Source: Nitrospirales bacterium (GTDB lineage: Bacteria > Nitrospirota > Nitrospiria > Nitrospirales > UBA8639). Taken from it: DNA of 64,000 nucleotides. The notes under the pieces were generated by a model, which worked only from the letters and a program-made list of their open reading frames with translations, had not been told where the DNA came from and made no database searches. Position 1 is the first letter of the stretch. Each line of letters begins with the position of its first letter. The stretch covers positions 2,400,001 through 2,464,000 of the forward strand of contig OY820905.2 in assembly GCA_963555755.3 (NCBI GenBank). Direction: 5' to 3'. The position numbers and the translations under genes are program-made. This document shows positions 2,554 through 64,000 of this stretch, in pieces.

Positions 2554-2739
2554 TTATTTCTTTTTCTTTGACGCAGTTTTCTTTTTGGCTGGTGCCTTTT
2601 TCTTTGCGGCACCTTTCTTTTTAGCAGGGGCTTTCTTTTTAGCCGTAGCTTTTTTCTTGGCTGGTGCTTTTTTCTTGGCAGGAGCTTTCTTCTTTGCGGC
2701 CTTCCTGGCCGGCGCCTTCTTTTTTACTGTCGGCAACAT
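2554..2739 (-). CDS. Small Lys/Ala/Pro-rich histone H1-like DNA-binding protein 1
   Basis: About 61 aa of KKKAPA repeats with varied synonymous codons; downstream terminator. Confidence 0.75.
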   Translation of the reverse strand: MLPTVKKKAPARKAAKKKAPAKKKAPAKKKATAKKKAPAKKKGAAKKKAPAKKKTASKKKK

Positions 2740-3077
2740 GATCACTCATCACTTAATGAGTGTGTGCCACAGTTCCTGGTGGTTACATACTCTTTTAAAA
2801 ATATTTTTTCAATCCTTTTTTATCATTGACTGTGTACAAAATTTTTTAGAAAAAAATTTTAATCATGTAGCTACACGAACAGGCCACGCTTATTTTTTCT
2901 TTTGACCGATCAACTATGGATTGCACGTCATCATCATGACTACGCCATTCGTTTTTACCTTCTACCAATTTTCGACAATAAAAAAATTCCCTCAGCCATC
3001 ATTTATCACATTTCGCCATTCAAGAATTCATCGTAAATTGTATTTCCTGACGATTAAAAATTCCGTGATCCCGCCTA

Positions 3078-3234
3078 GGGCTCGCACAAGAATACCTTCC
3101 CCTTTTTGGGTGCTGAGACACCTGTCTGGCAAGGCGCGAGGACTGCGCATACTCCTCGTATGGAAAGGACGAGCAACGCCGCCAGACGGGATGGATCGAC
3201 GCCCAAACAGGGGAAGGTATTCTTGCGCGAGCCC
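3078..3234. mobile_element. 157-bp MITE (family C), copy 1
   Basis: Long TIR gggctcgcacaagaataccttcccct / aggggaaggtattcttgcgcgagccc; TA flanks. Confidence 0.85.
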
Positions 3235-3435
3235 TAAGGTTGCACGCCTGAAGAAATGGGAACACAAGGGCAATTGCCTGAAGGGAATTGCTGTCATCGC
3301 TAAAGGGAGTCTAGCTGACACCACGCATCATTCTTGCGCCCCTATTGCATTTAATAAGGAATTACCCGTTGAACCAACGTACGAAGTCAGGGTAAAAAAA
3401 TTTAGTCCTGAAAGATTCGGAGTGAAAAAACCTTA

Positions 3436-3592
3436 GGGCTCCCGCAAGAATAACTTCTCCTGTTTGGGTCCTGAGACACCTGTCTGGCAAGGCGCGAGGA
3501 CTGCGCATACTCCTCGTGTGGAAAGGACGAGCAACGCCGCCAGACTGGATTGATCGACGCCCAAACAGGGGAAGTGATTTTTGCGCGAAGCC
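3436..3592. mobile_element. 157-bp MITE (family C), copy 2
   Basis: Diverged direct copy of 3078-3234. Confidence 0.85.
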
Positions 3593-3603
3593 TAAGAGAA
3601 TCA

Positions 3604-3631
3604 GCTGGGAGTAGAAGACTCTACTCCCAGC
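3604..3631 (-). terminator. Hairpin downstream of histone-like gene 2
   Basis: gctgggagtaga-agac-tctactcccagc perfect 12-bp stem; weak U tract. Confidence 0.55.
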
Positions 3632-3653
3632 GATGATTGGAAGATGAGATATG

Positions 3654-3800
3654 CTATCTCTTTCTAGCCGCGGCCTTTTTCTTGGCTGGTGCTTTTTTCT
3701 TAGCCGCCTTTTTCTTGGCTGGTGCTTTTTTCTTAGCCGGTGCCTTTTTCTTAGCCGGTGCTTTTTTCTTTGCCGGTGCTTTCTTCTTTGCTGTCGCCAA
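3654..3800 (-). CDS. Small Lys/Ala/Pro-rich histone H1-like DNA-binding protein 2
   Basis: TTG start after AAAGGGGGTGA RBS; MATAKKKAPAKKK...ARKR, 48 aa. Confidence 0.75.
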   Translation of the reverse strand: MATAKKKAPAKKKAPAKKKAPAKKKAPAKKKAAKKKAPAKKKAAARKR

Positions 3801-4182
3801 TACGCTCACCCCCTTTCCTGAATTAAGTGAAAACCTGTCCAACTATCCGTTCGAATCTCTCACGATAAAGAGCCACAGAGAAAAACCGTTTTGGGACTCT
3901 ATGTGAAATCTGTCCTCTGTCATACCCTGGTAATGATCAAAAACCTCTTTCATTCCTCCGCCTACCCAAACCTCCGCTAAAAAAAAACACTTCAGGAGCA
4001 GGTGGCCCTACTCTCGACGGCACTGTTGGAGGTTTGGAAATACTGAATGGTTTTGCGAACGCAGGAGATTGGCCACTTGTTCCATCCTTACCGTGGAGTT
4101 TCTGACTCGATCGCTTTTCATTCCTACTGGCAATTGACTCATCTCCCTGTGAGTTAGAACGTCACCGTATGCGATGAGAGGC

Positions 4183-5179: not shown

Positions 5180-6382
<1,203 letters not shown>

Positions 6383-6537
6383 GTCTTTCCGAAGGGTCTA
6401 TCCAGCAAGGCCGCAGCCATTTTGACGCGCGGAGCGTACTCATAGTACGTGAGCACGGCAAAAGGGCGAGAACGCCGCTGGCGGCTTTTTTCAACATTCC
6501 CTTGTTGAAAAACACATAGCTATAGTAAGTTCATCCC

Positions 6538-7602
6538 ATGACCGCCTTTCAATCTCTACCAATTATTGAGCCTTCTGGTCTGAATTTATTGGCCCTGAGC
6601 TTTCATGAAACATCGGCTTTGGTCGAGAAATTGAAGTGGCCAGCCTTCAGAACCCAACAGATTCTACAGTGGCTCTACCAACACCGGGCTAGAAAAATCG
6701 ATTCGATGAGTAGTCTTTCCAAGACAGATCGTGAATGTCTGCAATCCATCGCGACTATTGGTCGAGCGCCAGCCCCGACTGTCGTGTGTTCTCAAGATGG
6801 AACGCGCAAGCTCTTGTGTTCTTTGGAAAACGGGCTCCAAATTGAAAGCGTTCTGATCCCCGAGGAGCCGCGGTTGACGTTGTGTATTTCGACCCAAGTG
6901 GGCTGTACAGTTGATTGCCGATTTTGCTTGACCGGCCAAATGGGGTTAAAGCGCAATTTGAAGGCTCATGAAATCGTGGAGCAAGTGATGACCGCTCAAG
7001 ACCTTCTTCCTGAAAGTGAACGGATCACCTCACTGGTGTTTATGGGTATGGGTGAACCCCTAGCGAATATCGAGTCTGTCACGGAATCCGTCGCGCGACT
7101 CACCAATACCCGATGGGGACTTGGCATCCCTGCCCGGCGCATTACCATCTCCACCGCCGGCCTCGCACCACGACTAAAAAATATTGCCGGGTTAGGGGTC
7201 AATCTGGCCATTTCCCTCAATGCCACGACCAATGAACAACGAGATTACTTGATGCCGATGGTCAACAAGCTTCACCCGTTGCCAGAACTATTGGAAGCCT
7301 GCCGAACCTACCCATTAGGTCCCGGGCGGCTCCTGACGTTTGAATATGTCCTCTTAAGCGGAGAGAACGATTCGCCCGAAGACGCCAAACGACTGATTCA
7401 CCTGCTTAGAGGCATTCGGTGTAAAATCAATCTTATCCCGTTTAACGAATTCCCCGGCAGCTCGTTTCGCCGTCCGTCAGATGAGGCGATAGAGAAATTT
7501 CAATCTATCTTGAGACACAGTCGGTATGATGTCTTTCTAAGAAAAAGCCGCGGGCGGGATATCTTGGGAGCTTGCGGCCAACTTGGGAACATCCCTCCAT
7601 GA
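6538..7602 (+). CDS. rlmN: 23S rRNA m2A2503 radical SAM methyltransferase
   Basis: CISTQVGCTVDCRFC, FMGMGEP, NLIPFN, GACGQL. Confidence 0.95.
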   Translation: MTAFQSLPIIEPSGLNLLALSFHETSALVEKLKWPAFRTQQILQWLYQHRARKIDSMSSLSKTDRECLQSIATIGRAPAPTVVCSQDGTRKLLCSLENGLQIESVLIPEEPRLTLCISTQVGCTVDCRFCLTGQMGLKRNLKAHEIVEQVMTAQDLLPESERITSLVFMGMGEPLANIESVTESVARLTNTRWGLGIPARRITISTAGLAPRLKNIAGLGVNLAISLNATTNEQRDYLMPMVNKLHPLPELLEACRTYPLGPGRLLTFEYVLLSGENDSPEDAKRLIHLLRGIRCKINLIPFNEFPGSSFRRPSDEAIEKFQSILRHSRYDVFLRKSRGRDILGACGQLGNIPP

Positions 7603-13216: not shown

Positions 13217-14074
13217 ATGTGGGTCTACCTAAATGAGCGGTTCGTTGAAGACCATCAAGCTCGCATCTCGGTGTTTGATCGTGGCTTTCTTTTTGGGGAT
13301 GGGATCTTCGAAACGCTTCGAGTCCATAACACATACCCACTGTTTCTGGATCGTCATCTCCAGCGATTGCGACAATCGTGCGAATCGATTAGGCTTTCCC
13401 TTCCCACTCCCGAACCGCCTTGGGAGGCGCTTCTTCGAGAACTTGTTGATCGCAATCACCTGGAACACACGATGATTCGCATCACGATCACAAGAGGGGT
13501 AGGTAGCCTCGGTCCCGATCCTTCCGAATGCTCGAACCCAACAATCGTCATATTCTCCAGGCCACTTCCTCAGTTGACGAAAGACCAACGTGACCAAGGA
13601 GTGAGCCTCACCATTCTCACCACGCGGCGACAACCGTCCTGCGCCCTTCCATCGCACGTGAAGTCGCTCAATTACCTGAATAATATTCTGGCCAAACAAG
13701 AAGCGAATGAGGCTCACACGTTCGATGGCCTTCTGTTGAACACCGACGGACATCTCACCGAGTGCACGACCAGTAATATGTTCTTTGTCAAAAACCAGCG
13801 TCTTCACACCCCATCGCTCCAATGCGGAATTCTTCCGGGAATCACGAGAGGAATTGTTCTGGAATTGGCACGGGAGGGGGGGATAGGTGCCCAAGAAGGC
13901 ACCTACCTACCTGAAGATTTGCTGGATGCGGACGAATGTTTTTTGACGAATACTGGATTTGGAGTATTGCCTGTCGGCACGATCGTGTCCAGACAGTTGG
14001 AATCAAACAGATCAGGGTCCATGACCAAAACAATTCAGCACATGTACGAGAAACATATCGCTGATTCGCTTTGA
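13217..14074 (+). CDS. Class IV PLP aminotransferase / aminodeoxychorismate lyase-like
   Basis: DRGFLFGDGIFETLR, KSLNY, ILPGITR. Confidence 0.88.
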   Translation: MWVYLNERFVEDHQARISVFDRGFLFGDGIFETLRVHNTYPLFLDRHLQRLRQSCESIRLSLPTPEPPWEALLRELVDRNHLEHTMIRITITRGVGSLGPDPSECSNPTIVIFSRPLPQLTKDQRDQGVSLTILTTRRQPSCALPSHVKSLNYLNNILAKQEANEAHTFDGLLLNTDGHLTECTTSNMFFVKNQRLHTPSLQCGILPGITRGIVLELAREGGIGAQEGTYLPEDLLDADECFLTNTGFGVLPVGTIVSRQLESNRSGSMTKTIQHMYEKHIADSL

Positions 14075-14086
14075 ATGAATTATTTT

Positions 14087-14280
14087 ATGCGGGGTTTCGC
14101 CCCCACCGACGAGGTCCTTTTGTTTCGGCAAAAGGACCCAAAACCATTTCCGCCCGTGCGCGGCCCTGCGGGTTCCTCCGCCTCCGCCCCGAATAAGATG
14201 GCGAGGGACCTCGCTCCGCTCAAACAGCCCTCGCCGAAAAGCCGATTCGGGGCTGCGGCTCCGCCGCACCCGAAGGCGGG
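14087..14280 (+). repeat. Repeat family B copy 2 (intact; empty IS110-2 target cccgaAGgcggg at 14269-14280)
   Basis: High similarity to 14936-15127 plus 16627-16631. Confidence 0.85.
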
Positions 14281-14359
14281 TTGAAGATCATCATTAGATA
14301 CGAGTTTTCATCAGATTTTTCATCTTGACAGTTCCTATCGTGATCGACACAGTCATTTC

Positions 14360-14887
14360 ATGCCTAGGAAAGCCCAACAATCCTTAATTCCCATTGAACG
14401 TATCGCCAGTTCTATTTACCTGATCCATGGCGAAAAAGTGATGCTTGATCGTGACCTGGCTGCATTATATGGGGTTGAAACCAGAGTGTTGAACCAAGCT
14501 GTTTCTCGTAATCTGGAACGGTTTCCGAATGATTTCATGTTTCAATTAACAGCTGAAGAGGATAAATCTTTAAGATCACAAATTGTGATCTTAAAAGGTG
14601 GACGAGGACAACATCCGAAATACCTGCCAAGAGTGTTTACCGAATCAGGTGTGGCTATGCTCTCAACGGTGCTGAAAAGCAAACAAGCCATTCAAATCAA
14701 CATTGCCATCATGCGCACCTTTGTCCGTATGAGAGAAATGCTAGCGACAAATAAAGATTTAGCCCGAAAGGTGGAAAAACACGATAAAGAAATCGCCGTC
14801 CTATATGACTATCTCAAAAAACTCTTAGACCCTCCTAAATCCTCAAAGCGCCAGATCGGCTATACTCGCCGTCAGGAACGAGACTAG
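14360..14887 (+). CDS. ORF6N-domain DNA-binding protein
   Basis: VMLDRDLAALYGVETRVLNQAVSRNLERFPNDFMFQLT, FTESGVAMLS. Confidence 0.9.
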   Translation: MPRKAQQSLIPIERIASSIYLIHGEKVMLDRDLAALYGVETRVLNQAVSRNLERFPNDFMFQLTAEEDKSLRSQIVILKGGRGQHPKYLPRVFTESGVAMLSTVLKSKQAIQINIAIMRTFVRMREMLATNKDLARKVEKHDKEIAVLYDYLKKLLDPPKSSKRQIGYTRRQERD

Positions 14888-15158
14888 CTTTCTCCATATA
14901 ATGTAAAAAATGGCGATTTCGTTTTTTATTCTTTAATGCGGGGTGTCGTCCCCGCGCGACGAGGTCCTTTTGTTTCGGCAAAAGGACCCAAAACCATTTC
15001 CGCCCGTGCGCGGCCCTACGGGTGAACTCCGCCCCGGCACCGAATTACATGGCTGCGAAACTCGCTCCGCTCAAACAGTGCTCGCCAAAAAGTCGAATTC
15101 GGTACCGCAGCTCCACCGCGCCCGAAGACTTCCTATGGTGTTGTCAAGCCCCCCAATT

Positions 15159-16384
15159 CTATGCATTGGCGCGAAGGTGCTGCCTCGCCATGTTGGCTAA
15201 ATGATATTGTTCATCATACGGGACCTGATGCTGCCACATGCGAAAAATAATCTTGAGCCATTTCGCCCCCAAGGCCCGCATCGCCTGATTATGCCGATGC
15301 CCACGAGCCCGACATTGCTGATAGTAACTCTTGGCCCACTCACTCTGAGTCAGCGACTGAAAGGCCACCCACCACATGGCTTGCCGCAGGGGCTTGTTAC
15401 ACGCCACGCGGTATCGCACCACACAACTTTTCCCACTCTGCCGCGTGACGGGTACCGTCCCCGCCTCGGCCTGCAGCTGGGCCCACGAAGTCCAGCGGCT
15501 CGGGGCATCGCCCAGTTCGGCCCACACCCGCGGAATGATGGTGCCGCTTTTCCCTCCCGGCAAGCTCTGCATCCACCTAGCCGCCGGGAGGGTCGCGAAA
15601 AAACGTTCGATCTCCGCATGATACTCTTTCACCACGCGGTGCGTGAGCACGAGCTGGGCCACTAGGGCCTCCATCAGTCGGGCCTTACTCCGCACAACAT
15701 GCGCAGGCACGAGCATTTGCGGGGCCTTCAGCTGTTCCCACCCCGCCGCCGTGCGGGCTGGCCCTAGCCGATGGGCCCGTGCAAAGCGCTGCCACTTGCT
15801 TTTCTTCAGTGTGGTCACAGCTGCGGGGGTGGAATAGGTTTGCAGAAAATCCACTGCCATCTGCGTCGTCAGATCCGGAAACAGTTCCAACACCCGCGGA
15901 TAGTAATCTTGTAAGGTGCTCGTCAGCTGATTCAGGATGCGGGTCTGCTGGTGCTGCAACCGCCGATGATCCTGAGTCAACAGTTTTAACTCTTGTGCAG
16001 CGGCCGAACTAGGCTGCAGCGCCCGGAGATGCGGATGATCGGTCCGCACCACCTCCGCCAGCACGCGCCCATCAAAGCGATCACTTTTTGAGGAACTCAT
16101 GCGGAAACGATCTCGGGCCCGATCCAGCGCTTTCGGATTCACCGGATACACCACCACCCCATGATCCAACAAAAACTCCACGACACGCCCGGTGGGTCGC
16201 TCAATGGCTGCCCACACCTCCACCCCAGCTGCGCGCCAGGTATCCACGCGCCAGCCCCACTCCCGTAAGCCCTTCGGCGTGTGAGCCACTAGGTCCTCCC
16301 ACACGATGGTGCCGGGGTCTCATCTTGCACACAAACCCCATGCTGCTCGTTGCCCCAATCGACCCCCAGGTAATATCGTGGCAT
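15159..16384 (-). pseudogene. IS110 recombinase with a frameshift near 16314-16317
   Basis: ATG 16384 after AAGGAGAGG gives MPRYYLGVDWG..; continues in another frame as GTIVWEDLV..AIERPTG..KSDRFDG..RQSGK; span 1226 nt is not a multiple of 3. Confidence 0.85.
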
Positions 16385-16399
16385 CAGCCTCTCCTTTCT

Positions 16400-16610
16400 T
16401 ACCCCACTCCCCACCGCGCGAACGACTCGTTTGCCTTATATCGGTCCTCCGGGGGACAACTTCCTATCGAACGTCTCACGCCGTTCCTTGCCGGAGCGGG
16501 ACAGTCTTCGGGTGAGCCTCCTCAGGGCTCAGGCGGGGATGGTCCTCGACCCAGCAAGCGCCAGGGATGCGGCACAATGAACGAAAAGAAAACTCCTACC
16601 ACACAAACCC
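16400..16610 (-). ncRNA. Putative bridge RNA of IS110 element 2 (ends approximate)
   Basis: Minus-strand guides TCCCCGCCT (16539-16531), CCCGAAG (16512-16506), ATAGGAAGT (16467-16459), ATATAAG (16441-16435). Confidence 0.82.
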
Positions 16611-16752
16611 CAGAGCATTATATAAGGCGGGAAGACAGTCAAGAAACAATCCAATTTTTCAAACTGGGGATGAGGAGGGCCACCCCTACTAGCACTCAAT
16701 ACTTATGCCTGACCCCACTTCCATCATTACTCAAACGCCCCGAACGAGAGGA

Positions 16753-17979
16753 TTACTGAATCTTGGCTGAAAGATGGGAAGGTGGATAATTGGATACAAC
16801 TTCAGTGTGTGGTCCAACTATATTCGTCACAACATATTGGGCGATCCTTTGATGAGCCTGGGCTGAAGGATGCCAATCATCGACAAAATGATAGGTTTCC
16901 CAATTTTCCCAATAATCGGGGATAATATCTTGGACAAAATGGACGTTAAAGTTTTTCTCCCTTAGGCCCCCCTCTATTCCCTCACTGATTGAACTATTAG
17001 GTTTATCCCAGAAAATGACGTGAAACTCCGCTTCTGGATATCTCTCCTGTAATAACGTTTTGGAGCGCTCCACTATATTTAGAAACAGTTTAATCTCCCT
17101 GTGGGTAACTTGATGAAACCAGATGCTGTTTAACAATAATGATTTTTTTAAATTCTGTTTGACTGGTTTCCATAAGCAATATTCGTGTGTCGGATTACAC
17201 TCCTGTGGATTTTCCGTATAAAGAGTCTCTCCCGTTTTGCTTAACCTATAATGGGGCCCTCCGCCACGATTCAGATGTGAAACCCGTTTAATATGATCGA
17301 TGATGCCCTGATAAATGATATAACGTGGCCTCACCTCAACGATAGAATTCACCAACCCATGTTCAATGGCCGCTAGCATTTGGTGAGGGCCATATCCGCC
17401 CATTCCAAAATTGTAGATTTTAAACCGTCCCTTCGTGAGAGTCCCGAAAACATAGGGCATAGTCTGGTCATTATTGACCCCTTCTCCAAACGTAAATGAA
17501 CCCCCAAAGAAAAGAGCAGATTCCCCCGTTGAGTTAGGAGGTGGGATAAATGTAGGGGCAATACGTTGTCCGTTTCTATCAATCGTAATGGAAGCCTCGT
17601 AAATAAGTGAGTTGTCGCGCGTTCGAAATTTTCTTCCGGTTCGTTGACTATTAGGGATTTCCCTCCAGCCGAATATCGGGTGGCCCTCATAGTTAAAAAC
17701 ATTCTCCCACCGGTACTTGTTTTTCTTGTCAGAATTGTCGTGCTGAAAAACTAGATATGATTCTGCTATTGCAAAAAAGAACATAAAGATCGCGAAATTG
17801 AACGATGCCAATTTTATGAGGGTCCGAGGACTGGAAATTGCCAAAATGAAAAAGGCTATGCTCCATAGCCCAAAAAACCAAATGTGGGGTGCGGGTAAAT
17901 ACTCCAACGAGAGGATGGAGAAAAGCATAAAAATGGCAGAACCAATTATTATGCGTAGGTTCATAATTGTCTTCACCAA
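16753..17979 (-). CDS. Membrane-anchored SGNH/GDSL hydrolase-like protein
   Basis: N-terminal TMs, FFGGSFTFGEGV, NFGMGGYG, DDWHPS; lower GC. Confidence 0.75.
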   Translation of the reverse strand: MVKTIMNLRIIIGSAIFMLFSILSLEYLPAPHIWFFGLWSIAFFILAISSPRTLIKLASFNFAIFMFFFAIAESYLVFQHDNSDKKNKYRWENVFNYEGHPIFGWREIPNSQRTGRKFRTRDNSLIYEASITIDRNGQRIAPTFIPPPNSTGESALFFGGSFTFGEGVNNDQTMPYVFGTLTKGRFKIYNFGMGGYGPHQMLAAIEHGLVNSIVEVRPRYIIYQGIIDHIKRVSHLNRGGGPHYRLSKTGETLYTENPQECNPTHEYCLWKPVKQNLKKSLLLNSIWFHQVTHREIKLFLNIVERSKTLLQERYPEAEFHVIFWDKPNSSISEGIEGGLREKNFNVHFVQDIIPDYWENWETYHFVDDWHPSAQAHQRIAQYVVTNIVGPHTEVVSNYPPSHLSAKIQ

Positions 17980-18558
17980 GGAATGGTTAAGGGCACGCTC
18001 AACGGGTTTTCTTTATGACACATGGTTTCCAACCTGATTCAATTATGGCTAACCCCAATTGTTTTTATTAGTCCCGAAAGGACGAAAATTGAACGTGAAC
18101 TCGAAAAGCACAAGCGGATTTAGAGGTAATACAGCCTCAAGAATCTTTCAGAAATACAAAGTCAGAGATCGCGTCTACAATCTTATGGAATCTCAGCTTC
18201 TGATTTAGAAAGTTCGACCGGATGAAACCACCACCCCAGCCCCCATGACGGCGGTTTTCCCCAGGAGGCCTTCCGTTTTAAGAACCTTATCGGCCAATTT
18301 TCCTGCCAACCTGAAATAACAATGGCATGGCTCTCTTAGTGTTAGTACCTTGTCCCCAGTTGATTTGTCAGTGTCACCACAAGCCATCTGAGCCAAGGGG
18401 CACCTCCGTCTGTTCTATTCTTTTTCTCATCCACGTCTGGCTCGAGCAAAGAAGGCATTAGGTCCCAACCTGATAATCATCTAGAAGACTCCTCGCCTGG
18501 GCGGTACAGTTGAAAGATGTGTCAAGGATCTCTCAACCTTTCAACTCAAGGAGGAGCC

Positions 18559-18665
18559 ATGAACAATTTGGGGGGCATTGTCCTCCATGCCCACAACAAT
18601 ATGATTGTGCTTTTGAACGAACAGGATCAGGGCGTGTTCGAAAAGCGAATCCCGATTGACCTGGG
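18559..18665 (+). pseudogene. N-terminal relic of a fourth IS110-family recombinase
   Basis: AAGGAGGAG RBS; MNNLGGIVLHAHNNMIVLLNEQDQGVFEKRIPIDL resembles the GIDLH..VVLLDE..EKRLPNDL start of IS110 enzymes. Confidence 0.55.
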
Positions 18666-18692
18666 TATGGGGTCGTCCCAGGATTGGTCTTT

Positions 18693-18914
18693 CACTGCGT
18701 TGGGTGCGGCGGAGGTGGAGGCCCGAATCGACTTATTTGGCGAAGGTTGTTTGAGCGTAGCGAGTTCCTGAGCCAGCTTATTCGGGACGGAGGCGGAGGG
18801 ACCCTGGAGAACCTGCTTCTGAGCGGGGTCGGAGGGGCCGCGCACGGGCAAAAATGGTTTTGGTTCCTTTTGCCGAAACAAAAGGGACTCGTCTGCAGGG
18901 GCGAAACCCTGCAT
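18693..18914 (-). repeat. Repeat family B copy 4 (reverse)
   Basis: Reverse-complement match to 14087-14280. Confidence 0.8.
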
Positions 18915-18948
18915 AAAAACTTTTCAACCATGCCAAGACAACCTATTG

Positions 18949-19018
18949 GTCATTTCGAGTGAAGAGAGAAATCTTGAACGTTGCCGAACTACAGATTTCT
19001 CCCAAGGGTCGAATTGAC
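18949..19018. repeat. REP-like doublet hairpin (family R)
   Basis: gtcatttcgag..gagaaatct / agatttctcccaagggtcgaattgac; same units at 21751, 21814 and 23271. Confidence 0.75.
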
Positions 19019-19099
19019 AGAAAGAAAACTCAGCTTAGAAATAGGTGAGGGAAAATTGGGATGAATAAATGGCAAGGAGAAATGGTAGATCTTTGTCCC

Positions 19100-20722
19100 T
19101 TAGACAATTTTTAATTTTGGAGTGGGGGTCGGGCGCTCGGATTCTGGGCACTGAATCTGACTGTGAATCTTCCAAGCCGAACCTTCGCAGCCAGGAAAAT
19201 CTGATCGATAATGAGCCCCAAGACTATTTTCTCGCCACAGCGCAGCTTCGATGATACACCTGGCCACTTGCATCATATTTTTCACCTCTAAATCAGCCCG
19301 AGTCTGTAGGGAACCTAGCACTTGTGGTTCCCAAGCAGTGATCTTGGCCAGAGCCCGACCCAATGAATCGCCCGTCCGGACGAGTCCAACCTGATCCCAC
19401 ATCAACCGTCGCAAGGAATTCCGAAGTTTTTCCGCATCGTCAAGTGTTCGCTTCGGCTCGACGGCTAGGCTCGAGAGAACACTCTGCCTGTCTTTAGCAC
19501 TAACAGTCGAGGAACATGTGGTCGCGGAATGCGCAGCTCGGACGCCAAATACCAGCCCCTCCAGCAACGAATTGCTGGCCAATCGATTCGCCCCATGGAC
19601 CCCATTACATGCGGCTTCCCCAGCTGCTAACAAGCCGGGGATGATCGTCTCCCCATCGATGCCCGCTTTGATCCCGCCCATAAAATAATGAGCACTCGGG
19701 GACACGGGGATCCATTCCTCCGTGATATCAATGTCAAAACGCAAACAGGTCTGATAAATCGTGGGAAAGCGTTTCTTGATAAATGAATGTCCTAAATGCG
19801 TGACATCCAAATAGACATGCCGAACGCGCGATGCAGCCATTTCTGACCAAATGGCCCGGGCCACGATATCCCTAGGCGCGAGCTCTGCCGCCGGGTGGTA
19901 CCCGACCATGAACAACTCGCCTTTTCGATTTCTGAGCAACCCGCCTTCGCCTCTCATGGTTTCCGAAAGGAGAAACGGTGGACTGGATTGAAGATATAAC
20001 GAGGTGGGATGAAATTGGACAAACTCCATATCCTCTAGAATGGCTCCGGCTCGGTACGCCATGGCAAAACCATCTCCCGTCGCATTCGGCGAATTCGTTG
20101 TTCTGGCGAATGCCTGCCCGGCTCCACCGGTCGTCAAAATCACCGCCCTCGCAGACAAAACCTGTAGGCTCCCGGTGGTCTCATTGACCACAATCGCTCC
20201 GCAGCATCGGCCATCAACCATCAGCAGGTCCATGGTGAAATGATGATCGAACCATCGTATGGAGTCCTGCTTCTTCGCGCGTGCCAGCAACACACGAATC
20301 ATCTCATGTCCCGTAGCGTCGCCCTGGGCTCGTAAGACTCGATTGCGGCTATGAGCGCCTTCTTTGGCAAACGCAAACTTGCCATCGACTTTATCGAATT
20401 GAGTGCCCCAGGCGATGAGCTCTTGAATCCGGGAAGGACCTTCTTCTACGAGCACGCGAGCCGCGTCTTCACGACCGAGTTGATGGCCGGCTTTGATTGT
20501 GTCGGAGAAATGCAGATTCACATCATCTTCATCACTCAGCGCGACCGCGACACCACCCTGCGCATACGCGGAATTACTTTGTCGCCGGCTTCCTTTCGTA
20601 ATGATCAGCACGCGTCCGTGCCTGCTAAGTTCAATCGCCGCTCGCAGCCCTGCGACACCGCTTCCAATCACGAGAAAGTCCGCTTCCGGGCCCCAATGAT
20701 ATGTCGTTTTAGTTGGTTTCAT
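19100..20722 (-). CDS. nadB: L-aspartate oxidase
   Basis: VIGSGVAG, AQGG, EGAHS, QFHPT, HYFMGG, HGANRLASNSLLE. Confidence 0.93.
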   Translation of the reverse strand: MKPTKTTYHWGPEADFLVIGSGVAGLRAAIELSRHGRVLIITKGSRRQSNSAYAQGGVAVALSDEDDVNLHFSDTIKAGHQLGREDAARVLVEEGPSRIQELIAWGTQFDKVDGKFAFAKEGAHSRNRVLRAQGDATGHEMIRVLLARAKKQDSIRWFDHHFTMDLLMVDGRCCGAIVVNETTGSLQVLSARAVILTTGGAGQAFARTTNSPNATGDGFAMAYRAGAILEDMEFVQFHPTSLYLQSSPPFLLSETMRGEGGLLRNRKGELFMVGYHPAAELAPRDIVARAIWSEMAASRVRHVYLDVTHLGHSFIKKRFPTIYQTCLRFDIDITEEWIPVSPSAHYFMGGIKAGIDGETIIPGLLAAGEAACNGVHGANRLASNSLLEGLVFGVRAAHSATTCSSTVSAKDRQSVLSSLAVEPKRTLDDAEKLRNSLRRLMWDQVGLVRTGDSLGRALAKITAWEPQVLGSLQTRADLEVKNMMQVARCIIEAALWRENSLGAHYRSDFPGCEGSAWKIHSQIQCPESERPTPTPKLKIV

Positions 20723-21927: not shown

Positions 21928-22950
21928 ATGAACGGTACCACGATTGGCGTTGACATTGCGAAGAACGTATTTGAGATCTACGTGGAAGACGAAGCGGGGC
22001 AGGTGGTGGAACGCCGCCGCCTGTCTCGGAAGAAGATGTTGCCCTGGTTTGCGAATCGTCCCCGCGCGGTGGTGGGAATGGAAGCCTGTGGGGGCGCCCA
22101 TTATTGGGCCCGCGAATGAGAAAAGCTCGGCCATGAGGTGCGGCTGATTGCTCCGCAGTATGTGAAGCCGTGGGTGCAGACCAACAAAAGTGATTCGGTG
22201 GATGCCCGAGCCATCTGTCGTGCGGTGCGCGAACCCGGGATGCGGTTTGTCGCGATTGCCAGCGAAGCCCAGCAAGCGGTCCAGGCCTTTCATCGAGTCC
22301 GCAGCCGGTTGATGGGCAATCGGACCGCGCTGGTGAATCAGATCCGTGGGATCTTGTTGGAATATGGGGTCGCTATCCCCAAGGGCGTGGCCTCGGTCCG
22401 CAAGGCATTCCCCCTGCTTCTGGCCGAAGAACGGTGGGCGCCGCTGGTCCGGCAATTCTTGGTGGAGCAACAAGCGGAGCTGCTGAATTGGGATGCCCGG
22501 ATTGAGGAAGTCACCAACCACATCAAGCAGGAGAGTGCCACTCAGCCGGTGTGTCAGCGACTGGAGCAGGTGCGCGGGATTGGCCCGCTGTCGGCCTCGG
22601 CCCTGTGGCTCAAAGCAGCGGGGCAGCCGTATCAGAATGGGCGACACGTAGCGGCCGCCCTCGGCCTGGTGCCCAAGCATACCGGGACGGGGGGCAAGAT
22701 TCGGTTAGGGGGGATCAGTAAACGCGGGGACCGGTATCTCCGGCGATTGCTGATTCATGGGGCCCGGGCCGTGATCAGGCAGGTGGGCGAGAAACCGGAT
22801 CGGCTGAGTGGCTGGCTCCGGGAGCTCGTGGCCCGGCGCGGCATAAATAAAGCGGTGGTGGCGCTCGCGAATAAGAATGCCCGCGTGGCCTTCGCCATCA
22901 TGCATGGAGACCAGCCATATGATGTGACGAAAATGTGTCAGGCGTCATAA
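21928..22950 (+). pseudogene. IS1111 recombinase with in-frame TGA at 22117-22119
   Basis: GVDIAKNVF, GMEACGGAHYWARE*EKLGHEVRLI, KSDSVDA, ALANKNAR. Confidence 0.9.
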
Positions 22951-37356: not shown

Positions 37357-37370
37357 AAATTATACCTCTT

Positions 37371-37658
37371 GGGACTGTTGAATATCTCACTTCAATGACC
37401 AATAAAGGCCCATGATAGGACGGACACCGTCAGTTGGAGGGAATGTTCAAAAAAGCATGCCCTGAGTCTTGCCGAAGGGTCTATCCAGCAAGGCCGCAGC
37501 CCTTTTGACGCGCGGAGCGTACTCTCAGTACGTGAGCACGGCAAAAGGGCGAGAACGCCGCTGGCGGCCTTTTTCAACATTCCCTGAAAAGGATCGGAAG
37601 ATCTGACCAAATCCAGCCCACCCGCAGTAGATCAGTCTAATCTTGGACAGGCTCCTAG
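37371..37658. repeat. MITE family A long copy (37371-37584) fused to a fragment of the family E inner element
   Basis: Contains gcatgccctgagtc; followed by gatctgaccaaatccagc..ttggacaggctcctag; no TSD. Confidence 0.8.
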
Positions 37659-60294: not shown

Positions 60295-60422
60295 TCCGTT
60301 AAGCCTCCTCCAAGCGTTGTTGCATAATTGCCGTTAATTTACCACCGGGCAGGTCTCTTGATAGAGCCTGAGAGCAACCGATGCTCAGTGATCGCTCGTC
60401 TACAGTTTGCGCGAGCACTTGA

Positions 60423-60660
60423 GGGCCTGTTGAATATCTCACTCCAATAGCCAATACAAGCTCCAGAGAAGTCACGCATCGTCAATGGGGGGGAATGTTC
60501 AAAAAAGCATGCCCTGAGTCTTTCCGAAGGGTCTATCCAGTCCTGTCCTGAGCAGAGTCGAAGGAAAGGCCGCAGCCCTTTTGGCGCGCGGAGCGTACTC
60601 ATAGTACGTGAGCACGGCAAAAGGGCGAGAACGCCGCTGGCGGCTTTTTTCAACATTCCC
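60423..60660. mobile_element. MITE family A long copy (238 bp) with an empty IS110-1 target
   Basis: 5-bp TSD CTTGA; contains gcatgccctgagtc. Confidence 0.9.
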
Positions 60661-60674
60661 CTTGAAAAACTCGA

Positions 60675-61355
60675 CTATTCACTGCCCTTCTTCCGGTAGT
60701 CCTCAACGCGGTGCCGGATCAGCTCACCATCGACCATGAACACCACATCCTCCGCAATATTAGTCGCCAGATCCGCGATCCGTTCGAGGTGCCGGGAGGC
60801 GGATAGGGCATGTACGGCCCGTGTGATCGTCTCGGGGTCTCGGCGCATGAGATCTTGCAAAATGGTATACATATCCCTGTTGATCGCGTCGATCTCATCG
60901 TCCATCATCAGAACCTTCCAGGCCAGCGCGGTATCCCTATTGGTTAGCGCATCGAGACTGTCCCTGAGCATTTTTCGAACCCCCTCGGCCATCCGGGGAA
61001 AGTCCAACGATACGTCTAATTGCTCTTGGGTCGACAGGTAGGCGGCGCGCTCAGCGATGTTGACGGAGAGGTCGCCCATTCGTTCGAGGTCGTTGTTGAC
61101 TTTGAGCACCGCAACGATAAACCGGAGGTCCGCCGCCACCGGCTGGTGCAGCGCGAGGACCTTGAGGCACGCTTCCTCCACCTGGTTCTCTTTGTCGTCA
61201 ATGAAGTCGTCGCCGTCCATTACTTCCTCGGCCAGGTCGATACGACGATCCACCAGGGCGGTGATCGCCTTGTTGGTGACATCCTCCACCATTGAGCCGA
61301 GGCTCAGGAGCTCCTTCTTGAGGTGTTCTAGGTCCCGTTGCAAATGCTTTGACAT
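60675..61355 (-). CDS. phoU: Phosphate signalling protein PhoU
   Basis: QPVAADLR, DLERMGD, LERIADLATNIAE. Confidence 0.95.
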   Translation of the reverse strand: MSKHLQRDLEHLKKELLSLGSMVEDVTNKAITALVDRRIDLAEEVMDGDDFIDDKENQVEEACLKVLALHQPVAADLRFIVAVLKVNNDLERMGDLSVNIAERAAYLSTQEQLDVSLDFPRMAEGVRKMLRDSLDALTNRDTALAWKVLMMDDEIDAINRDMYTILQDLMRRDPETITRAVHALSASRHLERIADLATNIAEDVVFMVDGELIRHRVEDYRKKGSE

Positions 61356-61363
61356 CTCTCCCC

Positions 61364-62191
61364 CTATCCGAACCGGCCCGTCACGTATTCCTCAGTCCTC
61401 TTCTGCTTTGGACGGGTAAAGACCTCTGTGGTCTCACCGAATTCAACGAGTCTTCCGCCCTCTAAAAAAGCGGTGAAGGCGGAGACTCGGGCCGCTTGTT
61501 GCATGTTGTGAGTAACAATCACGATAGTATACCGGTCCTTGAGTTCGAACATCAGGTCCTCGATTCGAGCCGTGGAAACCGGATCGAGAGCGGAGCAGGG
61601 TTCGTCCATGAGGATAACCTCCGGCTCCATGGCCAGCGCTCGCGCGATACATAGGCGCTGCTGCTGTCCGCCGGAAAGGCTCATTGCCGAATCGTGCAGG
61701 CGGTCCTTGACCTCTTCCCAGAGCGCGGCTCGGCGAAGCGACTTCTCAACTCGTTCGTGGATGTCCCCGGGATAACGGTTGACCGTTGGACCCCAGGCGA
61801 CGTTCTTGAAGATCGACTTGGGAAAGGGGTTGGGCTTCTGAAAGACCATGCCCGTGCGTCGGCGCACCTCGACGGGATCAATGTCATAGGCGTAGAGGTC
61901 CGTACCAGAATAGAGTATCTGTCCCTGCATGGTCATGCCTGGAATGAAATCGTTCATCCGGTTGAATGCACGGAGCAGTGTGCTCTTGCCACACCCAGAA
62001 GGGCCAATGACGGCTGTGATCCGTTGCTCCGGGATCAAGAGGGAAACCTCGCTGATCGCCGGATTCTCACCGTAGCGGATGGTGACGCTGCGAGCCTCAA
62101 GAATCGGTCGGCTCCCTGCGACTGGGTTCGGGGCGAGATGATCCTTCACATCGGTTATGGGTCTGTTAATTATTTCCGGTCCAGGACCCAT
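61364..62191 (-). CDS. pstB: Phosphate ABC ATPase; native start disrupted by a MITE, start inferred
   Basis: [38 protein letters not shown]. Confidence 0.93.
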
Positions 62192-62392
62192 AGGGCCTCC
62201 AGGGAAGACGGCTCGCAACAGCGGGAGGGAATGTTCAAAAAAGTTCGTTTTCTGACCCGCCCAACCCAAGCGCGCCAAGACACGCCCTTCCGCAGGCAAG
62301 GCCGCAGCCCTTTTGACGCGCGGAGCGTACTCTTAGTACGTGAGCACGGGAAAAGGGTGAGAACGCCGCTGGCGGCTTTTTTCAACATTCCC
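62159..62392. mobile_element. MITE family A copy (234 bp) just after the native pstB start codon
   Basis: 5-bp TSD GTTAT (62154-62158, 62393-62397). Confidence 0.9.
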
Positions 62393-62396
62393 GTTA

Positions 62397-63452
62397 TCAC
62401 CTTTGAGCCCTCTCAGCACGATGCCGGATAAGGACCGCGACGGCATTCATCAAAAGGAGCACGGCGAGAAGAACAATGATCCCCGCGGCCGCGAGTTGGT
62501 GAAACTCCGGTTGCGGCCGCGATGCCCAGTTGAAGATCTGAATGGGAAGGGCCGTGAAGGCGTCCAAAGGTCCATCGGGAACAAACGCGACGTAGGTCAG
62601 AGCTCCGATCGTGATAAGTGGGGCGGTCTCTCCAATCGCACGCGAAAATGCGAGGATGATGCCGGTGATAATTCCCGGTAGTGCCGCGGGAAGGACATGG
62701 GCTCGCACCGTCTGCCAGCGAGTGGCACCGAGGGCATAGGCAGCTTGGCGGATGGAGCCGGGTACTCCACGGATGGCTTCCCGGGCCGCGATAATGATGA
62801 CCGGCAGGATCAGCAGACTCATGGTAAGGCTTCCCGCAAGAACGCTTCGCTCCAGCCCGAGCCACCGCACGAATATCACCAGTCCCAGGATGCCGTAGAC
62901 AATAGAGGGAACACCGGCAAGGTTGGCGATGTTGATCTCAATGAACCGGCTGACCCTTCCGCTCAGCGCGTATTCCTCAAGATAGATCGCCGCCGCTACC
63001 CCGACGGGGATCGAGAAGGCGGCCGTGAGGCTGATCAGCCATACCGTACCCCAAAGTGCCGAATGGATCCCTGCCTTCTCAGGAAAACGGGAGGGGAAAT
63101 CGGTGAGGAACTGAAGATCCACCCAAGGGAGTCCCTCGCGGGTGACGTGAAAGAGCAGAACGCCCAGCAACACCACGCCGGCCCAGGTCACGGCGGCACA
63201 GAGCAGGCGAAAGGCTTTGGAGACCATGTGACGACGCGCCAGGCATTGGGATGTGGATCTGTTGAATATTTCAGGTTCATGACCCATAAATTCTCCAGGA
63301 AAGGCAGTTCGCATCAGAGGGAGGGAATGTTCAAAAAAGTTCGTCCAGCAAGGCCGCAGCCCTTTTGACGAGCGGAGCGTACTCATAGTACGTGAGCACG
63401 GGAAAAGGGCGAGAACGCCGCTGGCGGCTTTTTTCAACATTCCCGATGTCAT
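62397..63452 (-). CDS. pstA: Phosphate ABC permease PstA with a 65-codon in-frame MITE insertion
   Basis: [29 protein letters not shown] overlaps the pstC stop. Confidence 0.93.
63255..63444. mobile_element. MITE family A copy (190 bp) just after the pstA start codon
   Basis: 5-bp TSD GATGT (63250-63254, 63445-63449). Confidence 0.9.
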
Positions 63453-64000
63453 TCGTAGACCTCCCGAAATCTTCGGAGTACGCGGTGTGCGACGAGGTTC
63501 ATGCCGAGTGTCATGGCGAAAAGGAGAGCCGCTACGGCAAAGATGGTCCGATATTCCAGTGTCCCCGCGGGGGCATCGCCCAAACTGACCTGGACGATGT
63601 AGGCCGTCATCGTCTGGATGCTTTCAAGCGGATTCAACGTCATCTTGGGCGTCGCGCCCGCTGCCAGCGTGACGGCCATTGTCTCGCCAATGGCACGCGA
63701 CAAAGCAAGCACGAACGATGCTATCACCCCGGAGAGGGCTCCAGGCACCACAAGCCGAGTCGTCACTTCGAACGAGGTCGCTCCCAAGGCATAAGCTCCC
63801 TGGCGGAGTGTGTCAGGCACCGCGCGGAGCGCGTCATCGCAAAGGGAAGCGACCATGGGAAGCACCATGATGCCAACGACGATGGAAGCGCTCGCCGCGT
63901 TAAACACCTGCACCCTCGGAAAGATGCTCGCCAGAGTAGGCGTCACAAACGAGAGCGCAAAGTAACCGTAGACCACGGTCGGAATCCCTGCAAGAATTTC
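63449..64000 (-). CDS. pstC: Phosphate ABC permease PstC (5' part outside the window)
   Basis: [22 protein letters not shown]. Confidence 0.93.

Follow-up and report, generated by a model that had tools for sequence, protein, structure and literature searches.

A frameshifted IS110-group element in the end hairpin of an intergenic repeat of a Nitrospirales bacterium, probably inserted by bridge-RNA-guided recombination

In a 64,000-nucleotide stretch of a Nitrospirales genome (hereafter, the window; GenBank assembly GCA_963555755.3, contig OY820905.2, positions 2,400,001 to 2,464,000), we identified a frameshifted IS110-group element in the end hairpin of a repeat designated repeat B. The element was likely placed there by bridge-RNA-guided recombination, and point changes in the target loop of the RNA appear to have retargeted its lineage; we assign this reading a probability of roughly 0.93. 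The boundaries of the element, the guide matches, the covariation of guides with flanks, the conserved RNA stems, the catalytic residues of the paralogues and the frameshift were observed directly, and IS621 and its relatives serve as the models for the circle, transcription, RNA–DNA pairing and strand exchange that would have accompanied insertion. The window element is a new, mostly ordinary, member of the IS110 bridge-RNA group.

The element occupies positions 15126..16626 on the minus strand (1,501 bp including a CT core at each end), as defined by full-length alignments to two paralogues (83% and 74% DNA identity) that end at the cores. It has a 242-nt left end, a right end of about 30 nt and CT cores, with no long terminal inverted repeats, which is the arrangement of the IS110 group. 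In its protein, PF01548 and PF02371 both scored above the Pfam cut-off. NCBIfam NF033542 gave scores of 138.8, 132.2 and 124, just under the IS110 cut-off of 140. Two further features of the IS110 group are present: a two-loop bridge RNA in the left end, as a predicted consensus, and guides that covary with target and donor. The IS1111 group is described as having the RNA downstream of the gene and sub-terminal inverted repeats of 7–17 bp (PMC11208160), and the element does not resemble it: its RNA lies upstream of the gene, and only a 3-bp ATA/TAT repeat was found.

An earlier sequence-only reading had described four guides that match target and donor around two hairpins, and every motif that it named was found where it had placed it. 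On the minus strand, the target consists of a left half, TTCCCGC (16627..16633), the core CT, and a right half, TCGGG (15121..15125), and the donor of a left half, ATAGGAAGT (15128..15136; the 9 nt before the core CT), and, after the core, a right half, TATAT (16620..16624). The RNA segment of the predicted two-loop consensus extends over 16420..16554 of the same strand (RNAalifold, 35 sequences; coordinates from the RNA alignment). Its target loop holds the left target guide (16531..16539; 8/9 match, with both core bases inside), the right target guide (16506..16512; 7/7) and a handshake dinucleotide, AC (16504..16505), complementary to donor positions 6–7; its donor loop holds the left donor guide (16459..16467; 9/9, ending ahead of the core), the right donor guide (16435..16441; 7/7) and a second handshake dinucleotide, GC (16433..16434), complementary to target positions 6–7 (all minus strand). 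The four guides thus follow one another in the expected order, and both hairpins are present in the window RNA. The handshake concept comes from IS621, in which such dinucleotides pair after strand exchange (PMC11208158). The core falls outside the 9/9 donor match but inside the 8/9 target match, which puts the two left guides 2 nt out of step. The notion that the donor match is mis-registered was rejected; the covariation described below backs 9 bases before the core. When the left non-coding end was shuffled 20,000 times, each match on its own arose at 0.021, 0.012, 0.0004 and 0.004, respectively, and any two of the four together at 0.0005. RNAalifold applied to 35 chosen RNAs gave a two-loop structure of 29 pairs, 11 of which showed compensatory change. 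Folded alone, the window RNA was no stabler than its shuffles (z = +1.27), and the donor loop was absent from that fold; an Rfam search of 13500–19500 returned one chance match and no family for the RNA or for repeat B.

The genome (4.6 Mb in 2 contigs) contains, besides the two full-length paralogues, a truncated left end of a fourth copy, which has lost its left target guide. Both full-length paralogues keep the donor sequence and the donor guides, and their target guides change with their flanks: the right guides are perfect reverse complements of CT-TCGTA and CT-GTCCT, and the left target guides match at 7/9. When the empty sites of the three copies were rebuilt, 18, 13 and 7 other places in the genome matched them across the core, and therefore each paralogue lies in a repeat of its own. 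Close relatives are patchily distributed, being found in 10 of 115 same-family genomes (window genome counted); the nearest named ones are Nitrospiraceae records with 88–90% protein identity to the third paralogue. The closest relative found (L070; 84% DNA identity to the window element) entered a repeat B copy (88% over 104 nt) at the very base used by the window element, and one compensating base change is present in both its right guide and its flank.

Covariation was then evaluated across homologues. A protein match was present at 144 loci. Parsing succeeded for 89, and the other 55 were set aside: 19 had partial genes, 13 lacked a parsable target loop, 11 lacked a right end, 8 lacked a left end or flank, and 4 were duplicates or truncated. 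After de-duplication, the parsed loci gave 50 distinct guide pairs, among which 28 different right flanks occur, although relatives among them are not independent. The right target guide scored 4.72 of 5 in these pairs, against 1.99 when permuted (maximum 2.64 in 10,000 permutations), and was perfect in 39 of the 50; the left target guide scored 6.06 of 7 against 3.46 (maximum 4.00), with the best of three registers taken for its real and its permuted pairs alike. Because the pairs were de-duplicated and the distinct flanks are many, chance is untenable as an explanation of this covariation. The donor guides followed the donor through several variants, with the 9-mer on the left identical to it in 74/79 and the 5-mer on the right in 78/79; the base next to the left 9-mer varied (G 41, C 24, T 13, A 1; n = 79). 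In line with the post-exchange pairing of IS621, the target-loop handshake AC stood opposite donor GT in 41 of 50, and the second base of the donor-loop handshake paired with target position 6 in 32 of 44. The comparison of guides with flanks that the sequence-only reading had suggested therefore came out in favour of a bridge RNA: guides changed with flanks both in the three full-length paralogues and across the 50 distinct guide pairs, rather than following the opposite pattern of new targets with unchanged loops.

By analogy with IS621, a circular form of the element would join its two ends and thereby create a promoter. The predicted −35 hexamer TTGACA (15142..15147, minus strand) and −10 hexamer TATAAT (16617..16622, minus strand) both match the consensus, and joining the ends yields TTGACA, 18 nt and TATAAT, just as had been claimed; the spacer was 17 or 18 nt in 88 of 88 parsed loci. 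The linear element has no sigma-70-like site (in a scan of 15000–16800, the one site found lies outside the element). No circle or RNA was observed: four contig sets, a type of data that drops rare forms, contained no end-to-end joint, and RNA runs contained 0.09 or less of the words. From the junction promoter the RNA would be expressed; pairing with the repeat would involve its first loop and pairing with the circle junction its second, and the handshake dinucleotides are predicted to favour insertion. Point changes in the target loop have retargeted the lineage, leaving three paralogues in one genome, each in a different intergenic repeat.

The position of the core relative to the left target guide differed among relatives. 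The left side of the target loop was ungapped in 35 aligned RNAs, and the core C lay at loop position 9 in 10 of the 50 guide pairs, at 10 in 32 and at 11 in 3, and was unclear in 5; the register-9 group includes all three paralogues of the window genome. In the 7-member clade of the window element, registers 9, 10 and 11 scored 4.71, 2.00 and 0.86 of 7, and in a 24-member clade they scored 1.67, 6.29 and 1.04; these clade-defined means support two registers without circularity. L071, a relative outside the 50, scored 7, 1 and 0, and the right target guide was best at zero shift in 49 of the 50; the donor guides likewise kept their place. A protein tree (50 sequences plus 2 outgroups) needed 7 register changes; for register 9, no fewer than 3 are required by its starred branches. 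Gauged by the consensus stems, register 9 has the spacing of IS621, and throughout the clade the donor loop is equivalent to register 11.

We give an even chance to the explanation that the left target guide genuinely shifts within a fixed 10-nt loop, by one base in either direction, its placement relative to the core being only loosely fixed. The core C occurs at positions 9, 10 or 11 while the loop stays ungapped, and a U stands opposite the core T in 8 of the 10 register-9 elements but at the same loop position in 0 of the 24-member clade. Sliding would also be compatible with a recombinase that exchanges just the top strand and leaves completion of the bottom strand to the host: top-strand-only exchange is reported for CazIS110-1 (10.1101/2025.10.25.684509) and single-strand excision for IS621 (10.64898/2026.08.31.748434). 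Bottom-strand exchange is disputed in the accessible literature, being ascribed to the recombinase on the basis of the IS621 structures and left to the host in the CazIS110-1 and half-match preprints. None of 89 left flanks ended in the donor's GT, which is expected if products follow the top strand but is no proof of it. If the slide is real, the bottom-strand cuts on donor and target would not be symmetric, a tie to strand chemistry that we only infer. Three off-register cases (L005, L022 and L026), however, lie in C-runs; register-9 matches are weaker, at 3 to 6 of 7 in the clade of the window element; and the register is the best of three, a procedure by which non-cognate pairs look clear (≥ 5) in 5% of 2,222.

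Alternatively, the core geometry may be constant and the shifts may be one-base bulges, in RNA or DNA, at a near-invariant CC at target positions 7–8. We put this slightly below an even chance, and a one-base bulge accounts for the apparent register shifts equally well. Since 49 of 50 have C at target position 7, a CC/GG slip site is constantly available; a U facing the core C could form a wobble pair; and the right donor guide of IS621 is known to bulge (PMC11208158). A bulge leaves unexplained, however, why U at that loop position occurs almost only in register-9 elements, in three lineages. For the 400-aa clade as a whole we tentatively propose, at somewhat less than even odds, that the left target guide has repeatedly slid among three registers of a fixed loop, and that the left donor guide is two bases off the target guide of the window element. 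We found no description of a sliding left target guide in the literature searched, whose figures and supplements may show such patterns; the “register” in the accessible text of 10.64898/2026.03.19.712850 refers to a DNA hairpin.

The repeat B copy that took in the element lies at 14930..15125 (plus strand), and its tail of about 100 bp continues beyond the element at 16627..16727 (plus strand), matching the tails of uninterrupted copies. Within this ∼200-bp repeat, in its form with the 100-bp tail, the insertion falls in a hairpin close to where the conserved part ends. Repeat B is present at about 133 loci (0.43% of the genome), is mostly intergenic (7% of midpoints in long ORFs vs 69% of the genome) and was matched in 38 of 47 sampled same-family genomes. 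It resembles REP/REPIN sequences in being high-copy, intergenic and hairpin-rich; across the genome, 17 Y1_Tnp matches were counted, wherever placed relative to repeat B. An attC identity was tentatively set aside by eye, on the motif orientation expected of attC. That repeat B is the target, as had been claimed, agrees both with the position of the element and with the enrichment of guide-matching genome sites: 2 of 2 sites with ≤ 1 mismatch and 9 of 15 with ≤ 2 mismatches lie within it, and most copies end in a variant without a guide match. A second copy (14080..14282, plus strand) does contain the similar empty site reported at 14269–14280 (here 14269–14282), yet with 2 mismatches to the guide; the two sites with 1 mismatch, both in repeat B, are elsewhere. 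The repeat masks of the other two paralogues were built from their own empty sites, and because their enrichment (15/28 and 3/13 sites) is thus partly circular, it was not used as evidence; for the third paralogue, 4 of 13 guide-matching sites fell inside repeat B. No orthologous empty allele was present among 6 same-genus genomes.

We consider it very unlikely that the repeat was chosen chiefly by hairpin shape or by the protein, with the RNA matches secondary. The reconstructed empty sites of all three copies fold into small hairpins (−4.5 to −10.1 kcal/mol, calculated with no shuffle control), and a target stem-loop raises the efficiency of ISPpu10 (10.64898/2026.03.19.712850), but the ISPpu10 hairpin is no substitute for base pairing in that same report. 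Moreover, guides and flanks covary base by base, and only 9 sites in the 133 repeat B loci match the guides within 2 mismatches.

The DEDD/serine recombinase gene (15159..16384, minus strand) is frameshifted near 16314–16320, where it carries 2 extra bases relative to both paralogues. Its first frame ends after 31 codons, and the second encodes 381 aa without the first catalytic Asp, which is out of frame. An assembly error in an intact copy is highly improbable, because, although the frameshift sits in a short C-run, contigs of runs X2 and X4 (two studies, one of whose runs may be the window's own source) cover 16143–16552 with 0 differences and 0 gaps, and among the contigs only a related one in X12 is without the 2 bases. 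Since its recombinase is frameshifted, the window copy is probably unable to move by itself; judged from its sequence, it is probably a non-autonomous copy with an intact RNA, whose own recombinase is probably not made. Its mobilisation in trans by a paralogue is possible, given the same donor sequence and proteins that are 76–81% identical.

The enzyme had been put at roughly 408 aa and in a longer clade separate from that of another IS110 element in the window; the separate clade was borne out and the length was not, as the intact paralogues are 407 aa. An open-frame paralogue lies at G000 C1:3743162-3744382 (minus strand). Compared with the 329-aa ORF at 5393–6382, which we took to be that other element, the protein shares two short stretches only (24% over 235 columns), a marginal similarity. 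Residues D9, E61, D101, D104 and S316 were invariant in 28 aligned proteins. The predicted structure (pLDDT 86.5) had IS621 and ISCro4 as its best fold matches, at 18–19% identity, and contained an extra helical bundle (about residues 163–218) between two long helices.

Among known systems, IS621 of E. coli shares with the window element the left-end two-loop RNA, the CT core, the four guides, the handshake dinucleotides, the short ATA/TAT inverted repeat around the donor, the junction promoter, the DEDD plus serine residues and insertion into intergenic repeats (PMC11208160, PMC11208158), and it is the best fold match of the window-clade protein (E 7.6e-12). The left target guide is also spaced from the inner stem as in IS621, with 2 nt following the core C (PMC11208158). 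In contrast, besides the low identity, the protein here is 407 aa vs about 328 and is predicted to have the extra helical bundle, the right guides pair over 7 continuous bases, and the left donor guide spans the 9 bases ahead of the core with the next base free, whereas that of IS621 covers 7 plus the core C (PMC11208158). ISPpu10 of Pseudomonas putida resembles the window element in its REP target, CT core and hairpin in the target, and in both the left guide is tolerant far from the core and the right guide is stringent (10.64898/2026.03.19.712850); by its description, however, the left target of ISPpu10 folds with upstream DNA into the hairpin, whereas in the hairpin predicted here the left half pairs with the right half. 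ISEc21 and ISMch6 are likewise a case of natural redirection by few guide changes, with an upstream non-coding RNA and a junction promoter, but they are one pair with targets in IS3 transposase genes, whereas three repeats in one genome are involved here (PMC11187229). Transposases of ∼400 aa of the IS110 family from actinobacterial and rhizobial plasmids were 34–39% identical over ≥ 95% of the length, in a comparison of the proteins alone. Guides longer than those of IS621 have been predicted in many clusters of bridge RNAs, in a report whose accessible text (86 models) gives guide lengths but not register changes (10.64898/2026.10.21.760802). Thus, REP targeting, natural redirection, tolerant left and strict right guides, and longer guides are already in print; further IS110 and bridge-RNA literature includes PMC13626964, 10.1101/2025.05.14.653916 and 10.1101/2024.06.21.599552.

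The bridge-RNA mechanism has been known since 2024, and the element illustrates it cleanly in nature, within a clade that shares just 18–19% identity with the enzymes of solved structure. In a single genome, three paralogues combine one donor sequence with three repeat targets; together with relatives that vary in one guide base or in guide register, they constitute a ready-made series. If the sliding is true, these natural variants would directly test top-strand-only exchange in IS110 insertion, as opposed to the symmetric cuts of the IS621 structure, and would offer a chassis that reads up to 16 bp per site; the register variants would set guide design rules for long-clade bridge recombinases.

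Several observations were made on the other copies and relatives. The truncated fourth paralogue (L003; G000 C1:3130938-3132000), of which only the left end remains, abuts a repeat B copy that, by eye, holds an ORF-less group II intron just past the long hairpin of the repeat, and a similar intron end was seen in the repeat B copy beside L070. In the second paralogue (L001:1579-2802) the frame is open, and because otherwise conserved positions are changed (Lys99 to Asn and Tyr353 to Asp), this copy may be decaying. L068 and L071 have the right donor guide TAGAAG in place of TATAAG, and the left end appears to follow this change in L068 but not in L071.

Copies of repeat B also occur in close pairs: 33 neighbour pairs were 250–1600 bp apart, against 5 expected (maximum 13 in 1000 simulations). 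In 20 intervals picked by eye from these 33 pairs, 10 held toxin–antitoxin-type genes by Pfam (HigBA twice, BrnTA twice, ParDE, HicA, PIN twice, DUF4160/DUF2442 and an addiction-module antitoxin), and one further interval held an ORF with a RelA/SpoT domain. The pair in the window (14080–15125) flanks an ORF6N gene (14360–14887). Repeat B possibly forms one end of a small mobile unit that carries cargo, a reading drawn from repeat B intervals alone.

Elsewhere, the 329-aa IS110-type element at 5393–6382 has about 12 similar matches in the genome, a broken IS110-family element lies at 21928–22950, and PF01548 has 21 matches in the genome in all. A second large family of modular intergenic repeats occurs at 2133–2430, 6379–6573, 37365–37658 and 60417–63516, and the flanks of the other two full-length paralogues resemble its modules by eye. 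A 408-aa ORF adjoining the element (16753–17979, minus strand) had no Pfam match; the genome contains a second, partial copy of it with 70% identity. Finally, two arrays of 18-nt units at 2558–3809 read on the minus strand as Lys/Ala/Pro-rich coding repeats.
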